Assembly (NCBI GenBank): GCA_043228905.1 | Contig: JBHGNT010000005.1 | Coordinates: forward strand, 10,726,001 to 10,790,000 | DNA length: 64,000 nt | DNA from: Azolla caroliniana | Lineage: Eukaryota; Plantae; Polypodiophyta | Direction: 5' to 3' | In this document: positions 1 through 35,680 of the stretch, piece after piece | Position numbering within the stretch: position 1 is the stretch's first letter | Layout of the letters: the number at the start of each line of letters is the position of its first letter | Notes under the pieces: generated by a model | The model's database searches: none | Told to the model about the DNA's origin: nothing | The model's input: the letters and a program-made list of their open reading frames with translations, nothing else | Made by a program: the position numbers and the translations under genes

Positions 1-981
1 AGTGATCAACAAGATATGACAAGATAGGATGTAAAATGATAATTGAGGGAATGTAAGAAATTTATAATTATTTCATGAAAGAGTTCAAAATGGTTGCGAG
101 CATCGTTGAACCGTCGAACTTTGTCTCACAAGGTAGTCGCTCTTCTCTTTCTTGATAGTAGACCACAATCTTCCCTTCTATCTTTCGACGACGATAAGAC
201 TCGAACCTCCGCCTTTTCGTTGCGAGTTGAGCACCGCCGCCTCCAAGCTAGTTCTTCTCTTGTCTTTTGAAGATTGTATATAGATTTTACCTTCTCTCCC
301 TCTTTCTCTATTATGATATCTCTTACAATATAATTTCGCTCAATTCCATACAATAATTCTATTCAATATGATTGTTTGATTCCTTGATGTCCTTGTGACT
401 ATACTCCCTTCTCCTTTAATAGGAAGGGGATGGTTTTGCATGTGACCCATATGTCACACATGCAAAGAGGGCTCTTGCATGTGTGCTATATGGTGCACAT
501 GTAGTACATTACATGGTTTAGACTATACAATGCTACTTCAAATAAAACAATACTTTTTTTTTTATACATATGATGAGTTTGGTTAAATGGTAGGTTTTGA
601 GTGTCATAATGTGGAGGTTGTTGGTTCAAGTTTTCTCTCGCCCATGTAATACAATATATGATGCACATGTAGTACATTATATGGTTTAGGATTTAAACCA
701 TACAATATTACTTCAAATAAAACAAGACAAATAGTTTTATACAAATTACAATTATAGGGTAAATGGTAAGGTTTCAGAGTCATAAGGTGGGTGTTATTGG
801 TGCAAGTCCTCTCTTGTCCATGTAATATTTATTTATTTATTGCCTCTACATATAATGTATAATATTATCATAGGGTGTTTTTAATATTACCTTTATAAAA
901 CATTATGAAGATATATTTTATTTTAGTTACATATTTATCTTTTTGTAGACTTTTAATGTGAAGCTTTCGTACTTCACGACA
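1..981 (-). repeat. G1 3' LTR (partial; similarity to the 5' LTR starts at about nt 12)
   Basis: Direct repeat of 27161-27282/34686-35534. A purine-rich minus-strand tract (AGAGGCGGTGGA) abuts it at 982-993. Confidence 0.9.
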
Positions 982-1021: not shown

Positions 1022-2660
1022 CTATCTTCCATCGTCATGTTGATCTATTGGAGGAGGTTCTAGCTCAAACCTTTTCTTAAATACTTTTATCCTCTTTCCA
1101 GCTACCACATTTAGGATTAGTGTCCCATCCAATTCACTAAGTTTATAAGTAAAGTTATCATATACTTTTCTTAGTATGTAAGGCCCAAACCATCTTTCAA
1201 CGAACTTGCGGACAGTGCTATGTTCATTATCTAAATTGCTATCATACACAAGCAGCCAATCCCCTTCTTCTATCTTCTTATGTCGAATTCTGTGAGTTTT
1301 ATCAAAACAAATTTTATTCTTTAGTCGAGCCTCCTTCAATCATTGTGCTGCTAATTCTACATCTTCAGGCTGACGTTGTAATTGTTGAATTCTCAAAGCA
1401 AGCAATTCTTCTCTGCTTAGCTCTTCTCTCCATGGAATAGATGTCCATGACATAATTGATTCTTCTATTGGCATGATGGGCTTTTGGCCAAGTATTAGTT
1501 CAACTGGCATATATCCTCTTACCGAACTATCTGTTGTCCGATCTACCCATATTGCATAAGGTAGCATGCGTGGCCAATCTCTTAATCTACCTTTAAAACT
1601 TTTCATGATCGCCTTAACTATTGGGCTATGTCCTCTTTCCATCTTTCCATTGCCTTTTGGATTATAAGCAATTGTAAGTGATAACTTGACCCCTATCCGA
1701 CTGAAGAATTGTCTAGCTTCATCAAAATCAAGCTCTCCTTTATCTGCAATTACTTTACCAACACACCCATAACGACATATTACATCTTCTAACAAAAATT
1801 TACATACAACTTTATTTGTTTTTGTCGTAGTGGTCTTCCTTCTACTTGGTTTGTAAGGTCTTCTCTTGCTAGTACTAAATATCGCATTTGACCTTCCCCA
1901 AGTGGCATTGTCACTAGGTCGACCATCCATTTATAATGCATTAATGATGAATATGTTGGGTTTAGCTCATCTCGATACCGAATAGTCGAGTACCTCTAGC
2001 AAACCTCACAGGTTTCCACAAATTTCATTACATCTTTATACATATGTGGCCACCAATACTTTTCTTTCAACTTCATAAATGTCTCCCATATGCCTCTATG
2101 TCCTGCCCACAAACTATCATGGAATTCACTAATTAATTTTCTCTTAATTTCATCCTTACAAATGACTCCAAGAGGATTTTCGGTTGGCCTTTTTGGACGC
2201 CTCCATAAATGTCCTTCATGTAGGAAAAACTTGAATGCTCGTCTTCGAAATTCATTTAATTGTTTCTTGGACCATGATGGGTTGCTTCTTGAGTCTTTAG
2301 AAAATTTCCTATTTCTAACCACTGACCTTCATACTCTGTGTCTTTGAACATAATTCTTACATTAAACTCATCATGAGGCTTAATAGATACTTGATGAGCA
2401 ACTTGATGGCTTGTAGTTGCCCAATTTTTATCTTCAGCTTGCATCACCCTTTCATTTATGAACCTTGCTCTTGACAGCATATCTGCGACTGGGTTCTCTT
2501 TGCCCTTTATATGCCGTAATTCTAGGTTCATGGATTTGATGTATGCAATCCACCGAAGCATTGCAATATCTAGTGCCGTGCAACTTGCTATCATTCCGAT
2601 GAGTGGCAGACAATCTATTTCAACCACTACATCTGCTTGAATCAGTAAGCAAACCCCACA
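1022..2660 (-). pseudogene. G1 RNase H C-terminus and integrase, fragmented
   Basis: ORF pieces HIKGKENPVADMLSR, FHDSLWAGHRG...KYWWPHM...CEVC (zinc finger), AYNPKGNGKMERGH, RWFGPY (GPY/F). Confidence 0.9.
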
Positions 2661-2894
2661 ATTCTCGTTTAACTTGTGTATAATTTCTTTGTCTTTCATT
2701 TAATATCTTTGCTCCAAATCTTCTTTGTCTTTCATTTAATTTCTTTGTCTTTCAAGCTCCTCTTGCATTCATACATCCTAGTCACACACATAGCTCCACT
2801 TTCAGAAACATGAAATGACTTATTCATATGTTGTAATGCCCTAGGTGAGGGCCTTTTAATAATGGGACTATTGCAACCCTCATTTGCAGCAGTC

Positions 2895-3677
2895 CTAGTC
2901 AAAAACTTGATTATCAAAATCATCAGATTCTTTTGGTATCGAATGATCATGAAGCTCTTGCTTGTTCCTCTCATGATTTGGGCGAACTGTAATAAACTGT
3001 ACAGTTCTTCGTCCATCTTGGCTTCGAATCTTCGCATAGGCAGAACCATTGTCAAGGACTTTGGTCTCCATCTGTACCGCTATGATGTATGGTTGCCCCA
3101 AGATTATCGGATAGGTAGATCCTTCCTGCACAAAGAAATGTTGATCTACCTCTATATCACCAATAGTAACCTTTACATTTGGGCATGCACCAAATAAATG
3201 TTTGGTGACTGATGTGGTTGCTTTTACATGCCAACCATGTTGAGTATCAATTGGCCATCTACCTTTCCTGTAAAAATCAGCACTCATTATATTTATTTCA
3301 AAACCATGGTCAATAAGTGCCATCATTGGGTCTGGAACATTTCCAATCTTCACATGATGCTCAATAGTGGCTCTTGCCCAACATTTGTGAGAGTAGTGGC
3401 TTCTTCTCTCTGTTGAACTTATCATTGAGGTTGATGCATGTTGAGAGTCAACAATGATATTGTTCGACTCGTTGCTTACCACTTCATATGCCACCTTCCG
3501 ATTTGGCTCTTTAACATGCTCATTTACTTGCTTCTTTCTTCGCACAATATCCATTATTTCATCATGAAATTCCTTTTTTGCAATACCTAACACTTCTAGT
3601 GTAAATTCTACTCGACTATCTAGTATTCTTGTTTCTAAAATTTTCTTTAAATCTGTATCCTTTTCAATATCAGACAT
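2895..3677 (-). pseudogene. G1 aspartic protease region
   Basis: ALIDHGFEINIM ... PIILGQPY; homologous to G2 7958-9030; interrupted at 3678 by copia A. Confidence 0.85.
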
Positions 3678-3937
3678 TGTTGAGGATCAAGCGCATTGGG
3701 ATTTGAACCTTGTACCTTTACTTTATATATTATAGAACTTATAATAATGATATGTATCATTTATTATTATACGATAAACATACTAGCATGTAATGCATAG
3801 AATGTCATGCATACATGAAGCCATGTGGCGAGCATGAGGCGAACATGCTCGCATGCTTCATCTTATATAAAGGGGGCTTACCCCCACCATTCAATAAGAC
3901 TTATTATTTGAAGATATCTCATATCTAGATCTTAACA
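3678..3937 (+). repeat. Copia A 5' LTR (260 bp)
   Basis: TG...CA termini, TATATAAA at ~3864, followed directly by a tRNA-iMet PBS (3938-3950). Confidence 0.85.
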
Positions 3938-4247
3938 TGGTATCAGAGCCATAATCAACCGTTTATCTTTGCCAAAGATTCTCCCATCATTTCTCGATTA
4001 CTTCTCCACAAACTCAACCATCAATATCAACATCTCAACACCATAGCCAACTTTTGTACAACCTTTTCTTCCTCATCTCAACTATCAATATCAACATCTC
4101 AACAATAAGTGATTTCTTCTACGATTATCGCAACGACATATCGAAAGGCCGTCAAGCAACAATCTATCATGAACACACAAGCTCTTCAACAACAACGGTT
4201 TTTTGGTAAACACTTTTAATTAAGATCCTTATGTACTTGCATTCAAT

Positions 4248-5841
4248 ATGTCTGTTCAAGTAACGAAACTTGAAAATTTGACTAAAGATAATTATGCATC
4301 ATGGAAGTATAAAGTCATGTTGTTTTTAAAAGGAGAAGAATTGTGGCATATAGTTGTTAATGATAAACCTAGTCCTACAATAAAAGAAGAAGATAGAAAG
4401 GGAAAGGAAAAAGAATCTGGTGTTATTGAGTATGCAAAGGATTGGAATAAAAAGGATGCACAAGCCATGTAATACTTTCAAACACTCTTTCATCATCTTT
4501 GATTCCACATATAAAGCATTGTAATACTACTAAGGAAATGTGGAATACATTAGAAAATATTTTTTCGAATATATCTTCGACTAGAAAAATGCAACTAAAA
4601 GAGCAATTACAAAATGTTAAAATGGATAGAAACATGACAATCATGGATTATGTTGGAAAAATTAGGAAAATTGTGGATGATTTGGCATTGATAGATTGTA
4701 TTGTGGATGATGATGATATTGTGCGTGTATGTTTGAAACGATTGCCATCAAACTTTAATATATTTAAAACATCCATTTATGTTGCTGGAATACCATCATT
4801 TGATGAGTTGATTCCTAAGCTGCGACAAGAAGAACAAATTACAAGTTCATCAAAGAGTGGTAAGGATTGGAGTGAAGAACCATCTTTCTATGCTAATAGA
4901 GGAAAATCTCTAAGAGGAAAAGGAGGAAGGTGGCAACAACGAGGAAGAAATCCAGCTCGTGGAAGATGGCAAAATGAACAAATTTACAATGAAAATAAAC
5001 AAGAAGGTGAGAACTACAATAACAATAATAGTAGAGGGAGAGGGAGAATGCAAAGAGGATGAAAATTTCAGAATAATCAAGGTAATTTTCATGGTTATTC
5101 AGCCTCAACTATTAAGTGTTTTTATTGTAATAAGATTGGGCATCATGTGCAAGACTGTTGGATTCGACAAAGTGACATAAAGAATGGAAAATATAGTGAA
5201 AGTAATTATGCATGCAGTAGTATTACTCAAGTAGATGAAAATAATGAGAATACATGTGATAAAAATGCACTTGCAATTACAATTGGTAAGAATGCAAATA
5301 ATGCTTGGTATCTTGATTCTGGTTGTTCAAATCACATGACTAGAGATTGTGGTTTGTTTGACGCAACAAAGGGTTTGTCCACTCCAATTGAAATTTGTAT
5401 GGGTGATGATACATGTTATGATGTAAAAAGTTGTGGAGATGTTCAATTGTCGAATGACATGTCCAAAAAGCTAAAAGATATGTGGTACGTACCTGGTGTT
5501 AAAAATAATTTAATTTCTATTGGTCGACTAGTTGAGAAAGATATGGTTGTATTGTTTAATAAGTATGGATGTACAGTAACAAGTTCAAACATGGGAGAAG
5601 TGCTTGTAACCGGAAGAAAAGTAGGACGAATGTTCATATTGAATGATACAAAAAAGAAATGCATGATTGCAAATGAAAAAAATGAGTTTGAGTTGTGGCA
5701 TAAAAGATTGGGACATGTGAGTGCAAAAAGATTGCTAAATATGAGTAATAATGATTTGGTTCATGGATTGCCAAAGTTTAATAGAGATTGTGTTCTACCT
5801 TTTTTGTGAGCCGTGTTGTAAAGCAAAGTTCACAAGGACGG
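4248..5841 (+). pseudogene. Copia A gag, protease and GAG-pre-integrase
   Basis: LTKDNYASWK, CFYCNKIGHHVQDC zinc knuckle, WYLDSGCSNHMT, LWHKRLGH; contains stops and frameshifts. Confidence 0.9.
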
Positions 5842-6567
5842 TGTCATAGTGTGAATCACACACTACGTGAAATATGTAAAATACTATATCCAAAGTACGT
5901 ATAATAAATAAAATAAAATATTAAAAACATTTATTACATGCATAGGGTAAGATTCAAAACCTACACCTCCACGTAGACAAACCCCAACCTTACCATTGTA
6001 CTAACTTATCCTAAGTGTTTTAAATATAGATTGAATACATATAAGAACTTTATTTACGCCTACCTTTATTAAAAGGAAAGTCATGCATTTTTTAGAATAC
6101 GTGAATACTTTATTTATAAGAAAAATGTACACCAATAAAAAATGACTCGTGCACATCTAGCGAGCATGAGCACTATATTTAGGAAATAAAAGCATAGTGT
6201 AAAAAGGCAACTCATGCACATTTAGTGTGCATGAACACTTTAGAAAAATAAAGCATGAAGTTATGCTTAGCCTCTTCCATCCTTATATAAGGAGGAGAGA
6301 ATGATGTAAGGGGGTTGTTGCTTATTTTACAAGGGTGGATTAATATAATATAATCGTGGGATTCACGAATTTGCTAACTATTTTTCTCTCTTAATCTAAG
6401 TACTCACTAATACACTATACTCGTGGGATTCACGAGTTTTTCATATTTTTCTTTCTTACAACATATTTCATATTCTTCATTGCCTTAGAATCTTCTTTTC
6501 TCCTAGTCCAAAACCTCAGTGGTTCCCACCCGACTCACGGAACGATCCGGAGCCGAAAGGCACGACA
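5842..6567 (+). repeat. G2 5' LTR
   Basis: Direct repeat of 17646-18376; TATATAAGG at ~6283. Confidence 0.92.
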
Positions 6568-6571
6568 CAAG

Positions 6572-6589
6572 TGGTGAACCCGACGTGAA
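6572..6589 (+). promoter_or_regulatory. Primer-binding site complementary to the tRNA-Trp 3' end
   Basis: TGGTGAACCCGACGTGAA is the reverse complement of the plant tRNA-Trp(CCA) end ...TTCACGTCGGGTTCACCA (recalled, not searched). It lies 4 nt after the LTR. Confidence 0.8.
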
Positions 6590-6605
6590 CACGAGTGGCA
6601 AGGAG

Positions 6606-9030
6606 ATGGAAAATCAACCGGAGGCTAACAACATGATGATGATATTCGAGCGAATGCTTCAAGAACAATGTGCGATGTTAGAGATAGCGGCAGCAGTAGA
6701 GTGGCTCGTGCAACGGATCCGGCAATTCAACAGGAAGGACGTATCACGCTATCTTCGGTACTAGAAGGCGGAAATGATACAATGCGGGATTTCGAAAGGA
6801 TTGCAAGTGACATCCTTCAACCGGGTAGCTACCGACGTGCTTCAAGCAAGTATCCACGGGCTATGACAAATAAATCCAATGTGGGAAGCATTTGAAGAGG
6901 TGCTAAAGACCGCGTTCGCTATCGAGGACTCCTCCAAGGCAACGCGGAGAGGATTCGAGGATTGGGTAGAAACGTCGGACAAGGGGATGAAGGTCCTCGA
7001 TGTGTTTTCGGCATTCGAAAGTCGATTCGGGAGGTTGTCTGCGAGAGATCAAGCTATCCGCGCACCGGACAAAGTTATCATGTTCTTACGAGTCGTAGAT
7101 GTCCGGGACCGGAAGGATCTTGGAGTACTTCTAGAGGACACGACTACCGAGAGTGACCTCACCGAAACATGGGAAAGCGTGCAGGATATAGTCGCGCGAT
7201 ACACAAAGAGGGGGCAATGGCTTGCCAACGAAGAAAAGAGGGTTTCGGAACCGATTCCGAAACCGAGATCCAGATCGGAAGACCATCAACCGCAGGCTCG
7301 GGAAGCTACGACCGAGAAGGGAATCGACGCAACTATGGTGGAGCAGTTGCTGAAGGAGATGGAGAATCTAAAAATCGCGATGGTGAAGAAGTCGGATGAC
7401 CGTTCCACAAGTTCCAAGTATATGAACCGTCGGTGCATATGGTGCGATAGCACCGAACATGATCGAGATTGCGATGAGCACAAGCGCTACGACATGATCT
7501 TATCTACTACAAGGGAAATCGGATTCCTTCGAAGGACTCTCAGAAGCCGCTCCAACCGAACTTCCGAAAAGGCGGCATGAAGAAAGTCCTAGAGGAGGAA
7601 ATAGCGGCGAAGAGCAATTATGCGACAACCGCGGGAATACGTGTCAGGGAGTCATTGGGAGCAAAGGTGTCTTTTTGGCCGGAAGTGCTAGAAAACACCG
7701 AGAAAACCGAATCTAACGAGATCCGAATCACCGCGGAAGGCATCCGGGAAGGTACGGGATGGGAGTGCCCCGTCGATAACAATAGCGTATACGCCCTATG
7801 TCAATTACATGAGGTGTATGTGGACGAGAAGCAGCAACGCACGTAGGATGCGGCTGGACCATCGAAGACACCGGAGAGCTGCAACTTTGACGGAAGAGGG
7901 AAAGGAAAAACGATTCCGGCATTCAAGCTCGCCTAGGACATCGAACAACAAACGGACTTGAAAAATGTGTTCGAGGAGAGAATTCTTGACATCCGGGTAG
8001 TTTTTTCGCCTCAAGTACTACTCGGAATAGCAAAAAAAGAGTTCCATGATCTTCTTGTGGATCTCGTAAAAAGAAAAAGGCAAACTATGGAGGAAAATGC
8101 ACCGATGGTGAATGCAAATAGCATTCTAATGAACAACACTGAAGTGGAGGACGAGATTCCGAATTCCCACTATACAAAGCCACATTGGGCGCGTGCAACT
8201 ACGGAGACTCCAATCCGAGTCAGCAACATCAAAGAGCTCGTGCTAGCATTGATTGATCACAGATCGGAGATCAATTTGATGTCCAAAGAGTTCTACCGGA
8301 AGGGGAAATGGCCTATTAACACCAATCATGGATTGAAAATCCGGGCGGCCACTAAAGCAATGGAAGATCTATTTGCGGCTTGTCCGGATGTGACGGTGAA
8401 GATCAGGGATGTCGAGATCGACCAAAATTTCTTCGTACAAGACGAGGTCTCACACTCTGTGATCCTCGGGCAACCCTTTTGTTGAGAGACAAGCTCAACA
8501 TCGGCCGGATCGGCTGAAGAAGCCGAGGACCGGATCGGTTGGGACCAATCGGTTAGGCTGAGTGCGTAAACCGGGAGGCCGTTAGGGAAGATATTCCGTG
8601 AGGAATATATTTGGGAGTTAGTGTAGGAGCTCTTGATGAGCATTGAAGTACTGTCAGTACTTCGGTCAGTCCTTCTAAGACTTGTATAAAAGTGTTCACT
8701 GAGCACGTCTTATGTACAGACTGAGTATTATTGTTGAATAGAGTTTTCTGTTTCTCTCTCTGTCTCTCCTGCGTATACTGTGTAAGCCCAAGCTCTCCAT
8801 TGAACCTAAGTTTCCTTCCTTCTGTTCTGTCTTCATACTTGCTTCCACACGCTACTTTTTACACCTTTATCATAGCATCACGGATGGAGATGAAGGTGCT
8901 CAATAGCGGTGCGGCTTTTGCACAAATTCGGAGCCAAAACGGAGGGAAAGCCGTCCAATTCCTAACGGTGTTAGCAAATCATGAAAGGAACAAGAGAGAG
9001 CTCTTGTCCCAAACAAGGATGGACTTTTAG
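6606..9030 (+). pseudogene. G2 gag-protease ORF (stops, frameshifts, solo-LTR insertion)
   Basis: CIWCDSTEH knuckle, ALIDHRSEINLM, VILGQPF|IIASRME; ends ...RMDF-TAG at 9030. Confidence 0.85.
8480..8863 (+). mobile_element. Solo LTR of a copia-C-related family inside the G2 protease
   Basis: TGTTGAGAGACAAGCTCAACA...TTTTTACA; 5-bp TSD CCTTT on both sides; similar to 19832-20272. Confidence 0.9.
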
Positions 9031-9418
9031 AGCGGATTGTTGCGGAGTGGGGAAGTGATAGTCCGAGAAACCCTGATACCCCACACAGGAAGAAAATTCT
9101 CGGAGCAAAACAAGTACGAATCAGTCCGGATGGGGCATCTACGTACACGGTCGTAACCGGAGGAATGAAGAAAGAATACCGAAAGGTGGAGGATAAGTTA
9201 CGGTCGGCATCAATAATAAAAGAAGATGAAGAAATCGTGGGAATAGTTGAAGAAATGTTCTAAGGGAGCACACTACAACAGCTTGAAGAGCTCGCGAAAG
9301 ATACAAGCTAGGGAGACCGGGTAGTTCCTGTTGAGAAGCAAGCTCAACATGGTATGCGATGCTTATTGGGAAATAAGCTATAGTAGTTATTTAGCTACTT
9401 GTGAACATAAAGGAGAAA

Positions 9419-9560: not shown

Positions 9561-10013
9561 TACGTAAGTAACTTATTACTTAGGTAGAAAGTAAGAGAGT
9601 AAAGAAAATAAGAAGAAGGAATATAGGAAGTAGAACTCTGAGAGAGAGATAGTGAGCATAGAGAGAAAGAACTCAGAGAGTGAGAGCAAAAGAGAGAAGC
9701 AAACGAGAGCAAGTAGAGCTCTGCGCATAATGAAATAGAAGAAGTTTTTGGCTGCTACAGAGGTAAGTCTCCTTCCCCCTTCCCTTCTGTGTTTGAGCAC
9801 TAAACGATCTAGCACACCACGATCCGCCGCGCACATAAGAAGAGCTCGAGTGCCTTCTTCACGTTTTCTTAACATGGTATCAGAGCAGAGTTGCTCATAA
9901 AGAAGAGTACAAAAGTGCATAGATCTGAGAAAGGTATTTCTCTGTTTGCTGATCTGAATCAGAAAGTTATTTGTTGAAGTAATCGTAGCAAAAACCCTTG
10001 TTTGGAAGAGATA

Positions 10014-13000
10014 ATGGCTGCAGAGAATGCGGGCCAAATAGTTACAGAGAAACTAGATAAAAACAATTTCCTGGCGTGGAAATTTAGAATGACAAATTTC
10101 CTAATGGGGAAAGGATATTGGGATTACATTGAAGGAGACCTAGAAGAGGCTCCGGAGATCCCAGAAGAAAATGTCACAGCAGCACAGATTAAAGCATTCA
10201 AAGATTGGAATCAAGGGGCAAGGAAGGTAATGCATTGGCTCTCACTTAGCATCTCAGATTCGATGCTTGGGCACATACAAGATGTTATGCTCCCAAAAGA
10301 AGCTTGGGACAGTTTGGTAAAACTGTTTGCAGTAAACACAAAAGCTAGAAAGCTACAGTTGAAGACTGAGCTAAATACCTTAGAAAAAGGTAAGATGTCA
10401 ATAAATGAGTATGCCTTGAAAATAAAGAGCATATGTGAATCACTTGCTTCTATCAATGTAAAGATAGAAGATGATGATAAGGTAGAAATATGCTTGAGAG
10501 GCTTGGGACCTCAATACAAAAGCTTTAAAACCTCTATGCTTACAAGGGATAGTATCCCAAGTTTTCCAGATTTGGTTTCAATGCTTGTAGTAGAAGAAAG
10601 GAATCAGATGGATGATGTAAATAAAGGAAATCTTGAGAATGAGGGGCAAGCCCTATATAATAGTGCCGGAAGAGGCCGAGGAAGAGGCCATGGAAGATTT
10701 GGCTCAGCAAGAACCCACAATAATGGTTATCAAGGAAGAGGACAACAAACCATTAGAGGAAGAAACAACAACAGAGGCAGGGGGAGCAACCAAGGTAGAG
10801 GTAAGCAAACATATGTAAATGATGATGGCTGTTGGTATTGTGGAAAACCAGGCCACACACAAGCTGAATGTTACAAGAAGCAAAATGATGAGAAAAGAGG
10901 AAAGAGTCAGCAGAATAACTATGCCCAAACTAGTGAAGATTGTGAAAAAGATGGTGCATTTGTGGTACAACATGAGATAGCAGCAGTGGCTGAAAGCTCA
11001 CAGAAATGTAATGAAGAGTTTACATGGTATGTAGACTCGGGGGCATCTAACCATATGACTGGACATGCAAACTGGTTTGAAAGGTTGAGAGAACCAGAGA
11101 TTCCTGGCTATGTACGGACGGGTGATAATAGTACTCACCAAATAGAACATGTTGGAGATATCCCATTGTGGGAGGAAAAAGGAAAGACTAAGTATATGTT
11201 GAATGTAATGCATGTTCCAAATCTTGCTAAGAATCTGATTTCTGTTGGACAGATAGTAGAGCAAGGTATGCAAGTAAAGTTTAAGCAAAGTGGATGCTAT
11301 ATAGAAAAGAATGGGAAGCTCATTGCAAAAGGAAAACGACAAGGAAGAATGTTTATTTTGGATGTTGACATGCCTAGACAGATTTCAGCTATGTTTGCAA
11401 ATGGAATGAGTGTAGTCTCAGATGTGGAAATGTGGCATAAAAGGATTGGCCACATAAGTATGCAAACCCTAAAGAATATGTTGAGAAAAGATGCAGTGGC
11501 TGGACTGCCAAAACTGAAAAATTGTGAAATGGGAAAGATATGTGAAGCATGTCAATATGGAAAGCAAAATAGGTTGCCATTCCCTCATGAAAGACATGTA
11601 AGTAAAAATTTGTTGGATTTGGTACGTACGGATGTATGGGGACCAACTAAGAATGCATCTATCGGTGGCTGCAGATTTTATGTAACTTTTATTGATGATT
11701 GCTCAAGGAAAACATGGGTGTACTTCATGAAAGAGAAAAGTGAAGTGTTTGAATGTTTTCGTAAGTTTAAATGCATGGTAGAAAAGCAGGTAGGTACAAG
11801 AATAAAATGTTTAAGATCTGATGGAGGAGGAGAGTATTTCTCCAATGAATTTTCTGATTTTCTAAGCAATCAGGGAATAAGAAGACAGTTCACATGTAGA
11901 TATACTCCACAGCAAAATGGAGTTGCTGAGAGGAAAAATAGAACATTGGTGAACATTGCAAGGGCTTTGATGACAGAGAAGAATATGCCATTGTACTATT
12001 GGGCAGAAGCTGTAAATACAACAAATTATATTCTAAATAGATGTATAACATCGGGAGTACATGAAGCAACTCCTGAAGAGTGTTTCTATGGAAGGAAACC
12101 TAGTATAGAACACTTAAAAGTGTTTGGATGCCTTGCATATGTACATGTGCCTGCAGAAGTAAGAAGTAAGCTGGATCCAAAGGCAGAAAAATGTATTTTT
12201 GTTGGCTATTCAGAAGAACAAAAAGGGTATAGATGCTATAACCCTGTAACAAAGAATACTGTGACAAGTAGGGATGTAATCTTTGATGAGTTAGCCAGCT
12301 GGTATAGTCCAAAACAGAATCCAGAGACTGATGAAGACAATGAGATTGAAGACAGAGACAAATCTGAAAATGTAGAAGACTGCCACAGAGATGGAAGCAA
12401 GGTTGGACAGCAAAGTCCAACATCAACAGAATGTTCTGGACCATCAAAAAGCTCAGATGGTAAATTTGATTCGAATTCTTGGAGTGGAAAAAGTGGAGGA
12501 CACAAAAAATGTGATGATAAAAAAGGAAAACAGAAAATGCCAGAGTATGAAATGTTGGATGACTTGTCTAAAAACATGGAAGATGAGGATTCAGATGTGT
12601 CATTGGATGATCTTCTTGGTATAAGAGGATTGAAAATCCCTGGTATGGAAAAAGCATTGAAGGATGCAAATCAGAAATTGAGAAGATCAGATAGAGAGAA
12701 AAAAATTGTTGAAAGATTTGGTTATGATACATACATGGCTATGCATTATGCATACATGTCTAAGGTGGTACTGATCCCTGATCCAAGTAGTTTTGATGAG
12801 GCTAAAACTGAGAAGAAATGGGTGGATGCAATGCAAGAAGAGATTGATGCATTGGCTGAAAACAGAACATGGGATTTGGTGAAGTTACCAAAAGGAAAAA
12901 ATGTGGTAGGTTGCAAATGGGTCTACAAGACAAAGCATGATTCCAGTGGGAATGTAAGTAGACATAAAGCAAGATTGGTTGCAAAGGGATATGCCCAAAT

Positions 13001-14363
13001 GCAAGGAATTGATTATGATGAGACATTTGCACCGGTTGCAAAGATGGCAACATTGAGGACATTACTGGTTGTAGGTGCAGCTAGAAGATGGTTTCTTCAT
13101 CATATGGATGTAAAAAATGCCTTTTTACATGGTAACTTGGAAGAAGAAGTGTATATGTGTCAACCACCAGGTTTTGAAGATAGGAAGCATCCAGATTATG
13201 TATGTAAGCTGAAAAAGGTTCTCTATGGACTGAAACAGGCACCAAGAACATGGCACAGGGAACTTTCAGATTATCTGAAAAAACTTGACTTCAAAATGTC
13301 AAAGGCTGATTCATCATTGTATGTTAAAAGGAAAGATGATTGTATGGTTGTGATTCTGATTTATGTTGATGATCTCATCATTGGAGGTGATTTCATGGAT
13401 GAGATAAGTAAGCTGAAAAGAAATTTGGAAATGAAATTTCATATGAAAGATTTGGGAGATCTGAGATATTTTTTGGGTATTGAAATCATCAGATCTGAAA
13501 GTGGTATATGTGTGTTGCAAAGACAATATGCAACAACTATGTTGAAAAAGTATGGTATGCTTGGATGCAAACCTATTGGAGTACCACTAGATAAAAACAG
13601 CAAATTGAGGGCTGATTTGGGAGCCAAAATAGAAGATGTAAACATGTACAGGTCTATGGTGGGCAGCCTTATTTATTTGACCATAACAAGACCTGATTTG
13701 AGTTATGCAGTTGGATTAGTCAGCCAATTTATGCAACAGCCAACAAAGCCGCATTTGGACTGCATTAGAAGAATTCTGAGGTATGTAAAAGCTACTCAGA
13801 ACTATGGATTGTTTTACAGGGCTGATTTGGACATAAATCTGGAAGGATATACAGATGCTGATTGGGCTGGAAGCCAAACAGATAGAAGATCCACAAGTGG
13901 ATATATCTTTACATTGGGAAGTGCAGGTATTTCATGGAGTAGCAAGAAACAGGCTACTGTTGCATTGTCTAGTACTGAAGCTGAGTACAGAGGAGCTGCC
14001 ATAGCCACTTCTGAAGAGGTATGGATCAGAAGATTGCTTGCTGATTTGGGAGAGTATATAGATGGTACTGTCACAATCTGGTGTGACAACATGAGCAGCA
14101 TTCAACTTGCAAAGAACCCAGTGTTCCATGCAAGAACAAAGCACATTGAAGTGCATTATCACTTTGTTAGAGAAAAAGTGATTGAAGGAGAAGTTGATCT
14201 GGTGTATGTGAATACAAATCAGCAGGTTGCTGATATTCTCACAAAGGGATTGAGTGTGGAAAAGCATACACAGTTTCGGAACATGATGGGAGTTGTAGAC
14301 ATTGATATGATGGCTGAAAAGCATCATGAAAAAGGAGTTGTAGATAACCCCAAGAAAGGATAA
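10014..14363 (+). CDS. Copia gag-pol polyprotein (gag, CCHC, protease, integrase, RT, RNase H)
   Basis: Uninterrupted ORF with first ATG at 10014: CWYCGKPGHTQAEC, WYVDSGASNHM, DVWGP...SDGGGEY...[30 protein letters not shown]. Confidence 0.95.
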   Translation: MAAENAGQIVTEKLDKNNFLAWKFRMTNFLMGKGYWDYIEGDLEEAPEIPEENVTAAQIKAFKDWNQGARKVMHWLSLSISDSMLGHIQDVMLPKEAWDSLVKLFAVNTKARKLQLKTELNTLEKGKMSINEYALKIKSICESLASINVKIEDDDKVEICLRGLGPQYKSFKTSMLTRDSIPSFPDLVSMLVVEERNQMDDVNKGNLENEGQALYNSAGRGRGRGHGRFGSARTHNNGYQGRGQQTIRGRNNNRGRGSNQGRGKQTYVNDDGCWYCGKPGHTQAECYKKQNDEKRGKSQQNNYAQTSEDCEKDGAFVVQHEIAAVAESSQKCNEEFTWYVDSGASNHMTGHANWFERLREPEIPGYVRTGDNSTHQIEHVGDIPLWEEKGKTKYMLNVMHVPNLAKNLISVGQIVEQGMQVKFKQSGCYIEKNGKLIAKGKRQGRMFILDVDMPRQISAMFANGMSVVSDVEMWHKRIGHISMQTLKNMLRKDAVAGLPKLKNCEMGKICEACQYGKQNRLPFPHERHVSKNLLDLVRTDVWGPTKNASIGGCRFYVTFIDDCSRKTWVYFMKEKSEVFECFRKFKCMVEKQVGTRIKCLRSDGGGEYFSNEFSDFLSNQGIRRQFTCRYTPQQNGVAERKNRTLVNIARALMTEKNMPLYYWAEAVNTTNYILNRCITSGVHEATPEECFYGRKPSIEHLKVFGCLAYVHVPAEVRSKLDPKAEKCIFVGYSEEQKGYRCYNPVTKNTVTSRDVIFDELASWYSPKQNPETDEDNEIEDRDKSENVEDCHRDGSKVGQQSPTSTECSGPSKSSDGKFDSNSWSGKSGGHKKCDDKKGKQKMPEYEMLDDLSKNMEDEDSDVSLDDLLGIRGLKIPGMEKALKDANQKLRRSDREKKIVERFGYDTYMAMHYAYMSKVVLIPDPSSFDEAKTEKKWVDAMQEEIDALAENRTWDLVKLPKGKNVVGCKWVYKTKHDSSGNVSRHKARLVAKGYAQMQGIDYDETFAPVAKMATLRTLLVVGAARRWFLHHMDVKNAFLHGNLEEEVYMCQPPGFEDRKHPDYVCKLKKVLYGLKQAPRTWHRELSDYLKKLDFKMSKADSSLYVKRKDDCMVVILIYVDDLIIGGDFMDEISKLKRNLEMKFHMKDLGDLRYFLGIEIIRSESGICVLQRQYATTMLKKYGMLGCKPIGVPLDKNSKLRADLGAKIEDVNMYRSMVGSLIYLTITRPDLSYAVGLVSQFMQQPTKPHLDCIRRILRYVKATQNYGLFYRADLDINLEGYTDADWAGSQTDRRSTSGYIFTLGSAGISWSSKKQATVALSSTEAEYRGAAIATSEEVWIRRLLADLGEYIDGTVTIWCDNMSSIQLAKNPVFHARTKHIEVHYHFVREKVIEGEVDLVYVNTNQQVADILTKGLSVEKHTQFRNMMGVVDIDMMAEKHHEKGVVDNPKKG

Positions 14364-18376: not shown

Positions 18377-19831
18377 ATCGTAATGCCGATGAGGAATCCA
18401 ACTTTCAGGCACCCATTGGAGTTGGTTCATATGGATGTTTGGGGTCCTTTACAAGTAGCAAGCATTGGAGGATCAAGGTATTTTGTAACATTCATATGAT
18501 TATTCTAGAATGGTGTGGATATACTTTGTAAAAAAGAAAAGTGACATTTTTACAAAGTTCATTGAATTCAAGCAAATGGTTGAAAATCAATGTAATAGAA
18601 AAATAAAAATGCTTCGAAGTGATGGAGGAACCGAGTATATGTCAAATGAATTTGATAAGTTCTTAATAGAAAATGGTATTAAAGGCAAGTCACACCTAGA
18701 TACACTCCTCAAATGAATGGAGTTGCAGAAAGGAAAAATAGACATATACTAGAGATAGCTAGAGCTATGCTATTTGAAGTAAATTTGTGAAAAAGGTTTT
18801 GGGTTGATGCTTGTCATTATGCAGTGACTTTGAAAAATAGAATGCCAACAGCCATAATTGGTAACAATACTCCTTATGAATTGTTTTATAATAAAAAGCC
18901 TCAAGTTGATATATTAAAAGTTTTTGGATGTATTTGCTATGTATATGTTCCTAGTCAAGTAAGGAAGAAGCTTGATGAAGAGGCTATAAAGTGTATTTTC
19001 CTAGGTATTGATGTCATAAAAAATGGATATAGATGTTTTGATATAGATGATGAGAAGTTTCACATCTCAAAGAGTGTCAAATTTGATGAAATGCAAAATA
19101 GGAAAACATTAGAATGTGATGTGCAAATGCCTTTGTCAAGTAAGCTAAGTAGTGTGGATCACGAAAATGATGTTGATACCGAGAATGAGAAAATAGATGA
19201 TTACGTTGAAGAAGCTGACATAAATTGTGGGACAACTTCATAATTAAGAAGATCTAGTAGAATAAGAAAACATGTTCAGAGGTTAATATATGATAGTTGC
19301 ATTGCACAACATTATCTGTTTATGGCAAAAGTTAATGATTTTATTGAGCCTAATTGTTTTGAAGATGCATATAAGAATAGAGAATGGAAGTGTGTTATGC
19401 AGGAAGAAATTGATGCATTATACAAGAATGATACATGGGAGCTAGTGCCTAGACCGAATGATAAAAAGGTAATTGGTTGTAAGTGGGTATATAAGTCTAA
19501 GTTCAATTCGATGGTACTTTGAATAGATGTAAAGCAAGATTAGTGGCTAAAGGTTATTCTCAAACATATGGTCTAGATTATGAGGAAACATTTTCACCAG
19601 TAGCTAAAATGGCCTCTATTAGGGTTGTTATCTCTTTAGCAGCATCTCTAAAATGGAATTTATATCAAATGGATATAAAAAATGCTTGTTTGAATGGTAT
19701 TTTGAAGGAAGAAGTGTTCATGGAACAACCACATGGTTTTAAGGATAATGTTAACCCTGATTATGTGTGCAAATTGAAGAGGGGCTTATACGGACTAAAA
19801 CAATCACCAAGAATATGGTTTGAAAGGTTAG
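18377..19831 (+). pseudogene. Copia A integrase and RT (continuation)
   Basis: [41 protein letters not shown]. Confidence 0.9.
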
Positions 19832-25541: not shown

Positions 25542-25705
25542 GTTAGGAAACTACTTGAAAAGTATGAACTTCAAGCAAAGTTGTGCAAACGCATCAGTTT
25601 TTATGAATGATGGTACAAATGGTAAAATCATCATTGTTTTATACGTAGATTATCTAATTATAACAGGGTGTACAAAAAACCTAAACCCTTATATAAAGGG
25701 GGCTT

Positions 25706-26978
25706 TCTCTTGTTTCATGCTTTTTGGTTGAGCCAATCTCATCATCCGACCTTTTCCTTTTTTCTTCCACTATCACCTCATGCTCTTGGTGTTCTGCCAT
25801 CTGAGCATAGAATGTCATAACATCTACTGGAACATCCCATCCAATGTTTTTCCTTATAGAATCTCCGGCAACACGAAGGTCTTCCATCTTCAGCTTTTGC
25901 TTTTGTGCCGAACCAACCTTCAAGACGCATTCCTGTCGTTGCCAAGTAGTACATTGCAGAAGCCTTCTTTGCTTCAGCTTCTTCAAACTTAACCTTAACA
26001 CCACCATCACCAAAGTTCTTTGTAAGTGGACTTCTAGTTTTAGTTAAGTAAATGTTACCATTTTTCCAATAGACCAAGTCTCGATTTTCCATGTCTTTAT
26101 ATTCCGCACAATCACGTAATCGATGTTCGAGACTATCACACCACATGCATCGAGGTCGAAATGGTTCCCTTGACCTCGAAGTCTGACCATTCTCAAGCTT
26201 TGCCACTTTAATTGTTAGATATTTCATACTTTGAACTAAATCATCAAGCAAAGACTCACTCTTAGTTTCGATCATTTCTCGTGGTTGATGGACCATTTCG
26301 TGTGTGATGGTTCTCGACCAAGTCTTTGAACCGATTTGTGATTCCCACATGTGGTATTTGTAGCATTGCACCATTCCTTTGTATTCTTTTCATAAATTTA
26401 TTACAAGCATTTGTTACCTCATTCCAATCTGCAGTTATACCATCTTCGATATTTGGTATTTCAAGCATAAATTCCAATTCTTTTCTATATCTCTTGTCAA
26501 CTGCCTGCAAAAATAAAGCAACCTTTTGCCAAGACAAAGAATTTCTTTCTTCTGGCTTTAAGTGTCCATACAATCTATCAAACTCTTTTTTTGTGTCAGC
26601 CACAGATAATCCTTTATTTTCTTTTAGGACCCATTCATGGAATGAACGCATAGTAACGCGAGAGAAATCCTCACAAGCATATTCAGACACAAGTGCTTCT
26701 TTGAATGCATTCCAATCCAAACTATGCAATGTTTGTATTTCAAGAATTCTATCTCTTAATTCCATGTCCACTAATTTATAAAAGTTTGCTATTATATTGA
26801 CATCATTCATACCAGACATTTCCATTTCATCATAATATATATTCACATACTTCGAAATATTTGTGCCATCAAACATACCAATCTTCTCTCAGACTTCTCG
26901 TAAGGCATGAAATAATCGATCTTGATTCAACTTTTCAATAAACAACATTACCGGATCCATTGTACTCGTACTTGCCAT
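25706..26978 (-). pseudogene. G1 gag
   Basis: Homologous to G2 gag (VALFLQAVD, CMWCDSLEH); ATG near 26978 just downstream of the PBS. Confidence 0.85.
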
Positions 26979-27022
26979 GTTGATGTTCATCTTTACTTTA
27001 GATGTCTCTTCTACTTCCCCGT

Positions 27023-27040
27023 TTCACATCGGGTTCACCA
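27023..27040 (-). promoter_or_regulatory. G1 PBS (tRNA-Trp)
   Basis: Minus strand TGGTGAACCCGATGTGAA, 5 nt from the LTR end at 27046; 17/18 identical to the G2 PBS. Confidence 0.8.
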
Positions 27041-29685
27041 AATTGTGTCGTGGCGTCGTTCGCCTAGAAGCGTTGCGTAGACAGAAGACAACGTGAAAGT
27101 GAGGAAGGAATCGTTGGGATTTTGGACGAAAGAGACGAAAGAGTGGAAATAGATAAATAGAGATATGACAAGATAGGATGTAAAATGATAATTGAGGGAA
27201 TGTAAGAAATTTATAATTATTTCATGAAAGAGTTACAAAATGGTTGCGAGCGTCGTTGAACCGTCGAACTTTGTCTCACAAGCAAGGTTGTTAGGTACAT
27301 TAGATACGGTACGGATACCATACGTATTTAACGTATTAATACGCATATAGTACCTCCCAATTTAAAAATACGTTAAATACGTTTTTTAATATGTTAAATA
27401 CTTATCAAATACGTAAAATACGTATTTGACGTATTTTACGTATAATACGTTAAATACTTCTAGAATTTGAAAATTACTTATCTTTCAAAAAAATATTTGT
27501 AATATTGTAAAAAACATCTATGTTTACACAATGTACATTATAGTTCTACATCCTAAAATGCATATCAAACATTTGAACATTTCACATCCTAAAATACGTA
27601 TTAATATGAATGTCGACATTCACTTGTTCTATAAATTAGTGTGTATCACGATGTTCTACTTCAAATTGCAATTATTTACAATTATGCCCTTATAGATTGA
27701 GGAATCGTCTACGATTATCACACTCACTTTACATTTCTCTCTTCTTTTCTCTCTTCTTCATTATCTTCTTCATCATCCTTCTTCTTCTATCTTCTGTGAT
27801 TATCACACTTAGAGCCAGGACAGGTTTCAGTCTTCTTTTCTCTCTTTTTCTTCTTCTTCTTCGTCAACATCTCTTCTGTTCTTCTTTCTCTCCTTCTTTT
27901 TGCTTCTTTTTCACTCTTTTTTTTTTCTTTGGCTTTTTGTTGGGGTTTGGCTTACATTTTTTTATAAATACATATTATACCTGTTTTTCAAATGTATGTT
28001 AAACACCGTATTGGACAAATGTACATGATATTTGACTGAACAACATTGAGGTATAATACGTGTCACGAACACACCAAGCGTGGACTAAGACGGAGCACGG
28101 ATGATGAGACTACGACGGAGCAATGACGGAATGACACAAGAGCATAAAGATAGAGATGAAGATCAAGGAGAGAGGATGGGCGAAACGAGAATACTAGATT
28201 GATATGTCCATGACTAGCGTTGTTCACCTTGAATTCCTTCAAGGTGAACTCAACTATTTATACTAAGTGGCATGCATACCTGTTGCATGCATGTGATACA
28301 ATAGAGCATGTAGGCAGTAGGTACGCATGCATGTGCCAAGTGTTAATAATACAAGGGAGAAATTATGCACATAATGCTAGCTAAAACCTACAATGAGGAA
28401 GTATATACATGATTATATACTAGATGTGTGGTTAACACATAACACTCGATTATAACATGGTCATGTCAAGAGTTCGATTCTTGACATTATCCCCCCTCCA
28501 ACGATGCCTTCCCAAATTGTTTGTCGGCTTAAGGGGATATTGTTGATGAAAATCTTAGATCACCCCCAAAGTATTCTGTAAATCCTAGACAAGGAGTAAC
28601 CCTTCCACAAGACAGGGTATTTAACACCAACGGGCATGAGCGACCATGTGTGGTCCTCGCTAGCAATGGGCACAGTTTCGGCTCAAACCGAACCGAACCG
28701 TTAAACCGTGGCTTAACGGTTTATCGGTTCAAAATTAAATAATGAGTTTGGTTTGGTTTAAAGAATGGAAGTTCGGTTTGGTTTCGGTTCGGTTCGGTTT
28801 AACATTTATCGGTTTATCGGTTTATCGGTTTTATCGGTTTCTATTAATTTGGTTCGGTTTATAGGTTTATAGGTTCTTACCCTAGCCCTAAATTTTCAAT
28901 TTTATAAATTATACCCTTCCTAAATTTTCTATTTTATAAATTATACCCTTCTTATTTTTACTATGGACCTAATACTAGTTAGTAGTAGTAAGTACATACT
29001 ACAAACTACAGTGTATCTACAGACAGACAGACACAACTATCGAACAGAAAGGATTTAGGAGGCGCACTACACAGGCGGCATTGTGCAGGTTGAGGCGGCA
29101 ACCACCAATCACCACTTCCAATCACCACTTCATTGCTCTTCAGACTCCAGACTCTCCATAACACAGGTATGATCCATAACACAGGCTAAGTTTTTCCTTT
29201 TAGTTAACATGAAAAAATTGCAGTCTTCTCTTTGACTGATGAGTTGAAGATCATTTTAGACATGTATGAGAAGTAAATCATGCTCTTGATGGTGGAATTT
29301 ATTATCACATCGTTTTTAATAAATTGGATTGAAACCTTATCATTTCCGGGTTTCCTCTGCATTACATTTGTATAGTGCACCATAACATATAGTTCCATTG
29401 CATTTAATCGGTTTCTCACAAATTGGGCCGAACCCTTATCATTGTTCCCAGTACTTTACTTTATATTTGTATTGTATTGTGCAGCCAGAACTTCAGTGCA
29501 TGGGATGTTAGTTTCATTGCGATTTACTGCTCTATGGAATTATTTATATATACAAGATTCCTCTTGACATTATCTTTATGCTTATTAGACTCGGGATTTG
29601 GCTTATGGTGCTTCATAAAATAGGTCCAAAATTCTCTCTCAGATTTAATTATAACTAAATTTGATTAAATCACATAACTTAACAT

Positions 29686-30149
29686 CTTCCCTCACCTGCT
29701 TTTGAAAGGCCATTGGCAAGGAAATTATAAGTGTTTATGTTGGGCACTTCTCCCTTTTCTTTCATCATCTTAAATAATGCAACATCTCCTGGTTTCTCTT
29801 CTTGCTAGAAGGAATAAACAAGAAGGTTACATATATACAAGTTTGTTAACAAAACATGCTGAAGCATCTTATCATACATCCCATAAGCTTGCTTTGGAAA
29901 CCCTGCTTTCACCAATGCATCAATCATTATGTTAAATGTATGGGAATTGGGAATGCAGTCATATTTCTCCATCCTTTCAAAGGCTGTGACAGAAGCTTCA
30001 AGCATTCCAACATAAGCATAGACCCTGGCAATAGCTGTGAAAGCATTCGGTATCAAACTAACTTGATCCTTAACTATGTCTTCCATGAGAAATTCTATGG
30101 TCTTGAAATCCTTTGCCTCCCCAAGAATCTCAAAAAGCCACCAAGTTGA
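29686..30149 (-). pseudogene. Captured pentatricopeptide-repeat (PPR) gene fragment
   Basis: PNAFTAIARVYAYVG...AFERMEKYDCIPNSHTFNIMIDALVKAGFPKQAYGMYDKM...LFKMMKEKGEVPNINTYNFLANGLSKAG are P-class PPR motifs. Confidence 0.8.
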
Positions 30150-30340
30150 GCTAACTTAGCAATGTAACAATGTATCTTTCTATGTTAACATGTCTATCTT
30201 TCTATGTTTGCCATTAGACATAATGGTTGTTTTACTGTTCTTAGCTAACTTAGCAAACTTTCTACTTCATTTATTTTTCTCATTATAATGTATTTGAAAT
30301 GTGCTAATTGAGTTAATTGAATTTTATAGGACACCATAAA

Positions 30341-32552: not shown

Positions 32553-33339
32553 TTTTTGACATGTTAACGACAATAGTGGTTGCAATTGGAGATCTTCAAA
32601 GTCATTGTAATTTTTATTACATGTTGTTTACTATTTTGTTTTTAGTCGATTCTTTAAATTTGTTATTATGAATTACTTAATTCTTTTGTATATTTTATAC
32701 TTTCAGGAATCCCTTATTCAAATATTGGAAACAAAAAGCTGGATTAAGTTTACATATATGGTCCTATGGATTTGGAAAATTGGAACTCTATTATATGGAT
32801 TGTTGTTCTTAATTGGAAATTTGGAACTCTATTGTATGGAATTTTGGAACTCTATTGTATGGATTTTTGTTATCATTCCAAAAAACATTTATCTTTTTAT
32901 GTAATATCTTATCATGTTTCACAAATTAACAATTTTCAGAAAATGTGTTGTGAATTTCTGTTATTTTATAGTGTTCTAGTCTTTGATTTGGTACAATTTA
33001 TTGTTTCGTGTTGCTTGGATTATGTCAAAACCAATTTGGTTTGGTTTGGTTTTGATGTTTGATACACTGGTTTGGTTTTGATTTTTGGTAAACCGGTTCG
33101 GTTTGGTTCTACATTTTACATAAACGGTTTGGTTTTAAATGGTTTGGTTTCTCATACCTATTAAACGGTTTGGTTTAAATGGTTTGGCTTAAATAGTTTG
33201 GTTTAAATGGCTTCAAATTTTTTAAATGGTTTGGTTTGGTTTTTATTCTGAATAACCGGTTTGGTTTGGTTTGGTTTGGTTTCAAGGTCAAGAAACCGAA
33301 CCGAACCGAAACCGAACCGCGCCCATTGCTAGTCCTCGC

Positions 33340-33985: not shown

Positions 33986-35534
33986 AAGAAACTAAAAAAT
34001 AGAGACAATGATGATGAGAAAATAAAAGCCAATGAAAATGATGAGAAGAAACTAGGAGATAGAAATGGCGAGGAAGATAGGAAATGAAGCGATGTTGATG
34101 ATGGTACGGTGACGATGGTAACTCTAGAAGCAAGGGTGATGACGGAGACGAGTGATGCTTCTAGTTGGAAGGTGAACAAACTGTCACGGACACACCAAGC
34201 GTGGACTAAGACGGAGCACGGATGATGAGGCTACGACGGAGCAATGACGGAATGACACAAGAGCATAAAGATAGAGATGAAGATCAAGGAGAGAGGATGG
34301 GTGAAACGAGAATACTAGATTGATATGTCCATGACTAGCGTTGTTCACCTTGAATTCCTTCAAGGTGAACTCAACTATTTATACTAAGTGGCATGCATAC
34401 CTGTTGCATGCATGTGATACAATAGAGCATGTAGGTAGTAGGTACGCATGCATGTGCCAAGTGTTAATAATACAAGGGAGAAATTATGCACATAATGCTA
34501 GCTAAAACCTACAATGAGGAAGTATATACATGATTATATGCTAGATGTGTGGTTAACACATAACACTCGATTATAACATGGTCATGTCAAGAGTTCAATT
34601 CTTGACAATACGTACTATACAAATTATGAGGTATTATACGTATTTAAACGTTAAATGCAGGTACGTAAACAACCATGCTCACAAGGTAATCGCTCTTCTC
34701 TTTCTTGATAGTAGACCACAATCTTCCCGTCTATCGTTCGATGAGGATAAGACTCGAACCTCTGCCTTTTCGTTGCGAGTTGAGCACCGCCGCCGCCAAG
34801 CTAGTTCTTCTCTTGTCTTTTGAAGATTGTATACAGCTTTTACCTTCTCTCCCTCTTACTCTATTATGATCTCTTACAATATAATTTTGCTCAATTCCAT
34901 ACAATAATTCTATTCAATATGATTGTTCGATTCCTTGATGTCCTTGTAACTATACTCCCTTCTCCTTTTATAGGAAGGGGATGGTTTTGCATGTGGGCCA
35001 TATGTCACACATGCAAAGAGGGCTCTTGCATGTGTGCTATATGGTGCGATTGTAGTACATTACATGGTTTAGACTATACAATGCTACTTCAAATAAAACA
35101 ACACATTTTCTTTTATACATATGACAAGTTTGGTTCAATGGTAGGCTTTTAGGTTCATAATGTGGAGGTTGTTGGTTCAAGTTTTCTCTCGCCCATGTAA
35201 TACAATATATGGTGCACATGTAGTACATTATATGGTTTAGGATTTAAACCATACAATATTACTTCAAATAAAATAAGACATATATTGATTTATACAAATT
35301 ACAATTATAGGGTAAATGGTAAGGTTTGAGAGTCATAAGGTGGGTGTTATTGGTTCAAGTCCTCTTTTGTCCATGTAATTTTTTATTTTTTTTTGCCTCT
35401 ACATATAATGTATAATATTATCATAGTGTGTTTTTAATATTACCTTTATAAAACATTATGAAGATATATTTTATTTTAGTTACGTATTTATCTTTTTGTA
35501 GACTTTTAATGTGAAGCTTTTGTACTTCATGACA

Positions 35535-35680
35535 ACGTGTTAAACAGCACTATTTATACAAGTCCTCAAAAGGACTGACAGAAGTACTATGTACTTCAAT
35601 GCTCATACGAGCGACTGACACTACCTATGAGACAATGATTACCTAGTAGTCTAGGCTACTACTAGGCTTCCGATTTGCAC
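35535..35680 (-). repeat. Fragment of a copia-C-family LTR; probable insertion target of G1
   Basis: Reverse complement ATGAGCATTGAAGTAC...GTCAGTCC...GACTTGTATAAA resembles 8637-8708. Confidence 0.6.

Follow-up and report, generated by a model that had tools for sequence, protein, structure and literature searches.

A +1/−2 pol frame and a covarying pseudoknot at the protease/RT junction of a Phygy-like gypsy element: a candidate −2 frameshift signal

Organization of the G1 insertion

The window analysed here is the 64,000-nt stretch G000:C5:10726001-10790000, part of a 523-Mb genome, and it consists of a nest of LTR elements. G1 is a gypsy element on the minus strand, a single insertion of which is spread over about 35.6 kb of the window (Table 1), with the target-site duplication ACGT at both of its ends. 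Within window 3680-34680, about 22 kb of nested elements (copia, G2 and a further copia) part the G1 gag from its protease, and further DNA, part of it a hAT-type element near 28061-34481, splits the 5' LTR of G1. The window copy of G1 is itself broken, both by deletion of its RT and by these nested insertions. The protease of G2 is interrupted by a roughly 400-nt LTR-like piece at 8477-8872, similar to stretches at 19830-19947 and 25087-25204, and its pol by a copia element with an open frame of 1461 codons (9978-14363). On the plus strand, a chromovirus gypsy at 58226-62665 has a single open gag-pol frame of 1479 codons and LTR stretches at 56028 and 62673 that are 100% alike, and is a very young insertion.

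Table 1. Features of the G1 insertion and of the G2 junction used for comparison (positions in the window)
Feature	Position	Strand	Remarks
G1 3' LTR	1..981	-	extends about 117 nt beyond window start; then ACGT
G1 RNase H / integrase remnant, broken	1022..2721	-	
Deletion join in G1	2721..2750	-	RT-bearing stretch of about 1.6 kb (L061 4808-6385) missing
G1 pol frame start	2732..2905	-	+1/−2 relative to gag-pro; truncated by internal deletion
Predicted stem 2, 3' arm	2846..2851	-	CCCUCA, past 13-nt loop
Predicted stem 1, 3' arm	2865..2876	-	
Predicted stem 2, 5' arm	2877..2882	-	UGAGGG, in stem 1 loop
Predicted pseudoknot stem 1, 5' arm	2884..2895	-	starts at G of TAG
G1 gag-pro ORF remnant	2895..3686	-	aspartic-protease-like region, LIDHG motif; ends at TAG 2897-2895
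G1 junction	2909-2895	-	CAA GTT TTT GAC TAG
Protease piece of the split G1 insertion	3678-2895	-	
Spacer, UUU to stem 1 core	2896..2900	-	GACUA, 5 nt
UGA met at once in −1 frame	2899..2901	-	
Predicted shift site of G1	2901..2907	-	A_GUU_UUU here
G2 junction	9021..9084	+	G_GAC_UUU here, TAG, predicted pseudoknot, pol in −1
5' half of this G1 insertion	25702..27282	-	LTR end, broken gag
G1 tRNA-Trp primer-binding site	about 27024-27040	-	
G1 5' LTR start region	34678..35538	-	LTR begins 35534; ACGT at 35538-35535

G1 resembles Phygy, described in PMC6317226 as a non-chromovirus Ty3/gypsy element of Physcomitrella, in having a 4-bp NCGN target duplication, a tRNA-Trp primer site, a length of about 7.9 kb and no chromodomain; the first three of these sequence characters fit Phygy. 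NCGN duplications were found at window G1 (ACGT) and at the loci L061 (GCGG) and L068 (ACGT), while other flanks, those of window G2 included, were not clean. The primer-binding site matches, as a short pattern, the 3' end of the host tRNA-Trp(CCA) genes. The G1 copy L061 spans 1332-9204, within the Phygy size of 7.7-10 kb, and has no Chromo match. The G1 LTR contains a His/Met-rich open frame of 158 codons from a short-repeat region (L061:1574-2050, L062:1514-1990). The tRNA-Trp 3' motif also occurs in tandem clusters with a spacing of about 1.2 kb, 17 on G000:C8:17796786-17823370 and 20 on C16:4989496-5105657, which are possibly tRNA gene arrays or tRNA-derived repeats.

The protease/pol junction in the window copy

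The end of the window gag-pro frame is 93.6% identical to the ORF1 end of copy L061. A first-pass annotation of this DNA had reported the minus-strand junction, a stem 1 and both arms of a stem 2, and on re-checking of the coordinates all were present at the positions given there; its reading of the downstream open frame as +1 (that is, +1/−2) and not −1 was likewise correct. Stem 1 forms 11 pairs over 12 positions, with a single C-A mismatch. The same annotation had likened the geometry of the junction to that of G2, with an equal spacer and the same position. The spacers are equal only when the extra basal C-G pair of G2 is counted. The GG[A/G]C core of the stem, homologous between the two, lies 5 nt past the UUU in G1 as against 6 nt in G2. 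The stop follows directly after UUU in G2 and one codon later in G1.

A filter calling for a stem 1 of at least 11 and a stem 2 of at least 6 was passed by 2 of 2000 dinucleotide-shuffled versions of the 68-nt segment and by 13 of 3762 tiles of the window, the G1 junction among them. As a single copy the fold is thus rare and not unique, so that proof has to come from covariation across families. ViennaRNA, which folds nested structures only and does not score pseudoknots, gives stem 1 as the minimum-energy fold at L061 and at L070, a sister family of G1; in window G1 it favours another hairpin because of the C-A mismatch, the probability of stem 1 being 0.02 versus 0.99 in L061.

The +1/−2 frame across G1 copies

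The first-pass annotation had ascribed the +1 frame to decay through a base change in the T-run and had proposed aligning G1 copies to look for an extra base. No copy with an extra T was found, and the consensus holds the +1/−2 relationship, which refutes that explanation. An exact search of the genome returned 76 occurrences of the 5-T junction and none of the 6-T junction. A pattern of variable length identified 88 G1 junctions, all 88 of equal length, under a requirement for intact flanks that under-samples old copies. These comprise 70 AGGTTTTTG, 7 AGGTTTTTT, 3 AAGTTTTTG, 2 AAGATTTTG, 2 AAGGTTTTG, 2 AGGTGTTTT and 2 singletons. The heptamer G_GUU_UUU is present in 77 of the 88, and N_NUU_UUU, which would let the A-site Phe re-pair after a −2 slip, in 80 of the 88 and also in L070. 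The variant A_GAU_UUU, unsuited to a −2 slip, was found in two of the 88 (G000:C19:1028579 and C4:11203979); in one of these copies both frames are open and the first RT aspartate is replaced by Asn.

Seventy-two G1 loci were fetched, giving 57 distinct junctions, and 55 of the fetched junctions have no indel across the signal. Frames open for at least 150 codons on either side, in the order 0 then +1/−2, were seen at 23 of the 57 distinct junctions and in the order 0 then −1 at none of the 57; at 13 of the 57, both frames stay open as far as the fetched DNA extends. In 52 of the 57 a UGA shuts the −1 frame after 2 codons, and since this frame is closed the canonical −1 route is unable to reach pol in G1. 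Copy L061 has an ORF1 of 739 codons, an ORF2 of 1181 codons in +1 and near-identical LTRs, and open pol frames of 1181 codons are kept in many G1 copies. Every intact copy examined has the G1 pol in the +1/−2 frame. Contigs X1 and X3, which are of uncertain or DNA type and are silent on splicing and expression, span the junction without indel or joint.

Shift sites and spacers in the related families

A metagenome scan combined with the genome search yielded 118 loci (L061-L178), from which 20 without a protease or RT anchor and 7 with breaks or misplaced anchors were removed; the remaining 91 loci group into 30 families when clustered at 85% nucleotide identity. In 28 of the 30, pol occupies the −1 frame, the stem core sits 6 nt further on and the representative shift site is G_GAU_UUU (22 families), G_GAU_UUC (2), G_AAU_UUU (2), A_AAU_UUU (1) or G_GGU_UUU (1). 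The other two families, G1 (including L069) and L070, combine pol in +1/−2 with the site AG_GUU_UUU and a core 5 nt further on. Across 30 loci of G2 the −1 frame is open, with G_GAU_UUU in 23 of the 30. The conserved clade-wide −1 signal, mostly G_GAU_UUU followed by a stop and a predicted pseudoknot and found in 28 families from bryophyte-like and metagenome contigs (e.g., the L065-L139 representatives, G2 at 9021-9084, and L149-L178), sits between protease and RT and not between gag and protease.

The sister family L070, 72% identical to G1 in nucleotide sequence, has retained AG_GUU_UUU together with a 5-nt spacer and pol in +1/−2; 5 of its 12 stem 1 pairs differ from those of G1, and every one of them still pairs. 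The gag-pro and pol frames of L070 overlap by only 26 nt, so any shift is confined to the end of gag-pro. In the RT tree, G1, L069 and L070 form one clade with a support of 100/100 placed among the −1 rows (midpoint root; deep nodes open). By parsimony, we infer a single origin of the +1/−2 arrangement from a −1 signal, and the two families count as one evolutionary event and not as independent cases. Between G1 and L070, dN/dS is 0.105 for pol (dS 1.03, 1095 codons), 0.118 for gag-pro and 0.25 for the first 125 pol codons. Such purifying selection on pol at this dS argues that the +1/−2 frame has long been translated across the G1/L070 clade.

A search for further +1/−2 families returned only P0001 and P0002 among the proteins searched, and genome searches with L070 queries returned G1 copies followed by weaker matches to other families. 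A looser genome pattern gave four more matches among those listed, which resemble variant copies of −1 families. Two viral-contig pattern matches (L209 and L210) lack a following stem and were set aside as chance hits. Among named proteins the nearest come from Riccia, most of them at 62-68% identity, which makes a bryophyte host likely.

Covariation of the predicted pseudoknot

Scored on the gap-free part of a sequence-only alignment, where sequence kinship can inflate the shuffle test, stem 1 is paired at 75.4% over the 30 families, compared with 64.0% in shuffles and 30-43% in slid controls. Double-change cells number 58 in stem 1 versus 24 in the shuffles, and double changes are seen at 11 of its 13 pairs. 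Stem 2 was scored family by family because MAFFT fails to align it, loop 3 being variable. Its arms take forms such as GAGGG/CCCUC, GCGAGA/UCUCGC, GCAGGA/UCCUGC and GGUGA/UCACC, varying in step with the loop; 14 of the 30 families reach p<0.05 against shuffles, and the mean is 15.9 for own versus 12.9 for cross-family pairings. The comparative support is weaker for stem 2 than for stem 1.

The covariation across these 30 related Phygy-like gypsy families confirms a pseudoknot-like element as real, and the conserved predicted structure of G1, at 5 nt, falls within the 5-9 nt downstream that is usual for a canonical −1 signal. The stem 1 statistics also uphold the earlier suggestion that G1 and G2 share one pseudoknot topology with natural covariation between them. 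Covariance model R1 matches nothing in the window besides G1 and G2, but relatives of these two went into building it. Curated Rfam models gave no match at E<=1 for the 3 loci searched.

A candidate −2 frameshift

The G1 pol is quite probably reached by a pseudoknot-stimulated −2 slip at G_GUU_UUU that evolved from a −1 signal. Most ribosomes would read GAC and terminate at the stop, giving Gag-Pro. A −1 slip would lead to the UGA and shorten Gag-Pro by one residue. After a −2 slip the tRNA-Phe would re-pair on UUU, with poor re-pairing in the P site like that of the arteriviruses, and the resulting Gag-Pro-Pol would read V-F-L-T-R at its junction, which is colinear with the D-F-L-x-R seen in most −1 families. 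Stimulation would be provided by the conserved predicted pseudoknot 5 nt downstream of G_GUU_UUU, and the +1/−2 layout would have derived once from the G_GAU_UUU −1 signal of the clade (stem core at +6) with the pseudoknot retained. The codon in the A site after a −2 slip is AUU or GUU in 28 of 28 −1 families and UUU in both +1/−2 families. The 5-nt spacer is partly set by geometry, because the stem holds its pol-frame register, and 11 of the 28 −1 families reach 5 nt by way of an extra basal stem 1 pair. The U5 run may simply be inherited, as UUUU joined by the first base (U) of the ancestral stop. At 22 of 24 nt, the junctions of G1 and L070 are highly conserved but not exceptionally so, 13% of windows being equally good.

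A +1 shift would give the identical frame, with the peptidyl-tRNA-Phe moving forward from UUU or slipping at the UAG in an antizyme-like manner with the pseudoknot close behind, and is an unlikely alternative. It is compatible with the A_GAU_UUU variant, and the +1 codon is UUU in L070 and 7 G1 copies; UUU-based +1 sites are known, and the spacer length of antizyme tunes +1 versus −2 according to PMC3498833. In 70 of the 88 G1 copies, however, the +1 codon is UUG, which would re-pair poorly, and the A-site codon GAC/UAC differs from the UUU_CGN motif. For a slip at the UAG, stem 1 must already be melted, as it includes the G of that codon, and on either version the conserved AG_GUU is left unexplained.

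Separate synthesis of Pol, by termination-reinitiation or by its own initiation at an AUG in the overlap, is improbable. A pol-frame AUG does lie ahead of the stop, by 26 nt in G1 and 17 nt in L070, but at non-homologous positions, and 8 of the 28 −1 families have such an AUG by chance in their unused +1 frame. The open G1 copy L183 is without the AUG at −26, and the retained pseudoknot would be unexplained. Pol normally requires fusion to Gag for packaging, which also counts against reinitiation.

Splicing from CAG/GU at the junction could join protease to RT, as in Ogre, and is given the same low standing as reinitiation. The GUU of the shift site makes an AG/GU donor core that is absent from the −1 families, frame-compatible AGs lie at 178 nt (L061) and 157 nt (L070), and Ogre splices between PROT and RT in the account of PMC6317226. 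The would-be intron nevertheless reads open in the pol frame, where purifying selection acts over the first 125 codons, L069 is without the 178-nt acceptor, and the pseudoknot would be left without a role. Decay, or a non-autonomous family with pol not expressed, is very improbable: the window copy is indeed broken, but the lack of extra-T copies, the constant length of 88 of 88 junctions, a pol dN/dS of 0.10 and the 1181-codon pol frames of many copies speak against it.

Relationship to known frameshift systems

Natural −2 frameshifts are few in reviews (phage Mu, the arteriviruses and TVV1), and the best-studied of them needs protein cofactors. In TVV1, a −2 fusion at C_CUU_UUU was shown by an MS junction peptide; a −1 slip there would meet UGA and give a product one acidic residue shorter, and TVV2-4 probably use −1 (all as given in PMC3622925). 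G1 is like TVV1 in its N_NUU_UUU site, its polymerase ORF in +1, the UGA that a −1 slip would meet, giving a product one residue shorter, and its −1 sisters (probably −1 in the case of TVV1). TVV1 is a dsRNA totivirus whose frameshifting section in that source names no stimulatory structure, whereas G1 is an LTR retrotransposon with a covarying pseudoknot.

AG_GUU_UUU is the −2/−1 site of PRRSV, with an immediate −1 stop (PMC7618472, PMC6675879), and G1 shares with arterivirus nsp2TF the identical site, the immediate −1 stop and limited P-site re-pairing. The same two papers describe a shift that is stimulated by nsp1beta and PCBP at a C-rich motif, 9-10 nt past the site, and that involves no RNA structure; in contrast, the candidate stimulator in G1 is a cis pseudoknot at 5 nt. 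The arterivirus CCCANCUCC motif is absent from G1 at the 9-10 nt distance, where the pseudoknot lies instead. On engineered U6A sites, as reported in PMC3458567, −2 shifting works best when the spacer is 1-2 nt shorter than for −1, pseudoknots included, a change of the first base inhibits −2, and the pseudoknot optimum is 6 nt with a range of 5-8. The likeness to G1 lies in a U-rich site with a shorter spacer moving the slip from −1 to −2; those constructs are artificial, and G1 would be a natural case on G_GUU_UUU. Canonical −1 frameshifting with an H-type pseudoknot, of the retroviral and plant-virus type, is represented by the 28 of 30 sister families with an X_XXY_YYZ-like site, a 6-nt spacer and two stems, and differs from G1 in that the −1 frame of G1 is closed (open at 0 of 57 junctions).

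On balance, it is likely that G1 represents a natural −2 shift driven by a cis pseudoknot in an active retrotransposon, derived from a −1 signal whose stimulator was retained, and by the literature searched it would then be the first −2 shift in a retroelement. If true, it would be a natural version of the spacer-tension experiment. The presence of G2 (−1) and G1 (+1/−2) with the same pseudoknot in one genome makes the direction and size of the slip directly testable. In literature outside subscription journals, nothing was found on −2 frameshifting in any retroelement or on pseudoknot frameshifting in bryophyte retrotransposons. The ORF organisation of Phygy is given as "ND" in Additional file 5 of PMC6317226, in which overlapping frames come after GAG, not after PROT, in Tcn1, Selgy and some SIRE elements. 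The survey of Gao et al. (2003), as relayed in part by PMC5009743, recorded split frames in no more than two types of plant element, +1 in each case. The 30-family set points to a frameshift between protease and RT as the means by which a bryophyte gypsy clade is expressed, apparently one not described before.

Annotators should be warned that +1 offsets in these elements are not decay. Among the Riccia proteins (P0019-P0120), many gene models fuse protease and RT at ragged joins, which suggests that introns are being invented by gene callers to bridge the frameshift.
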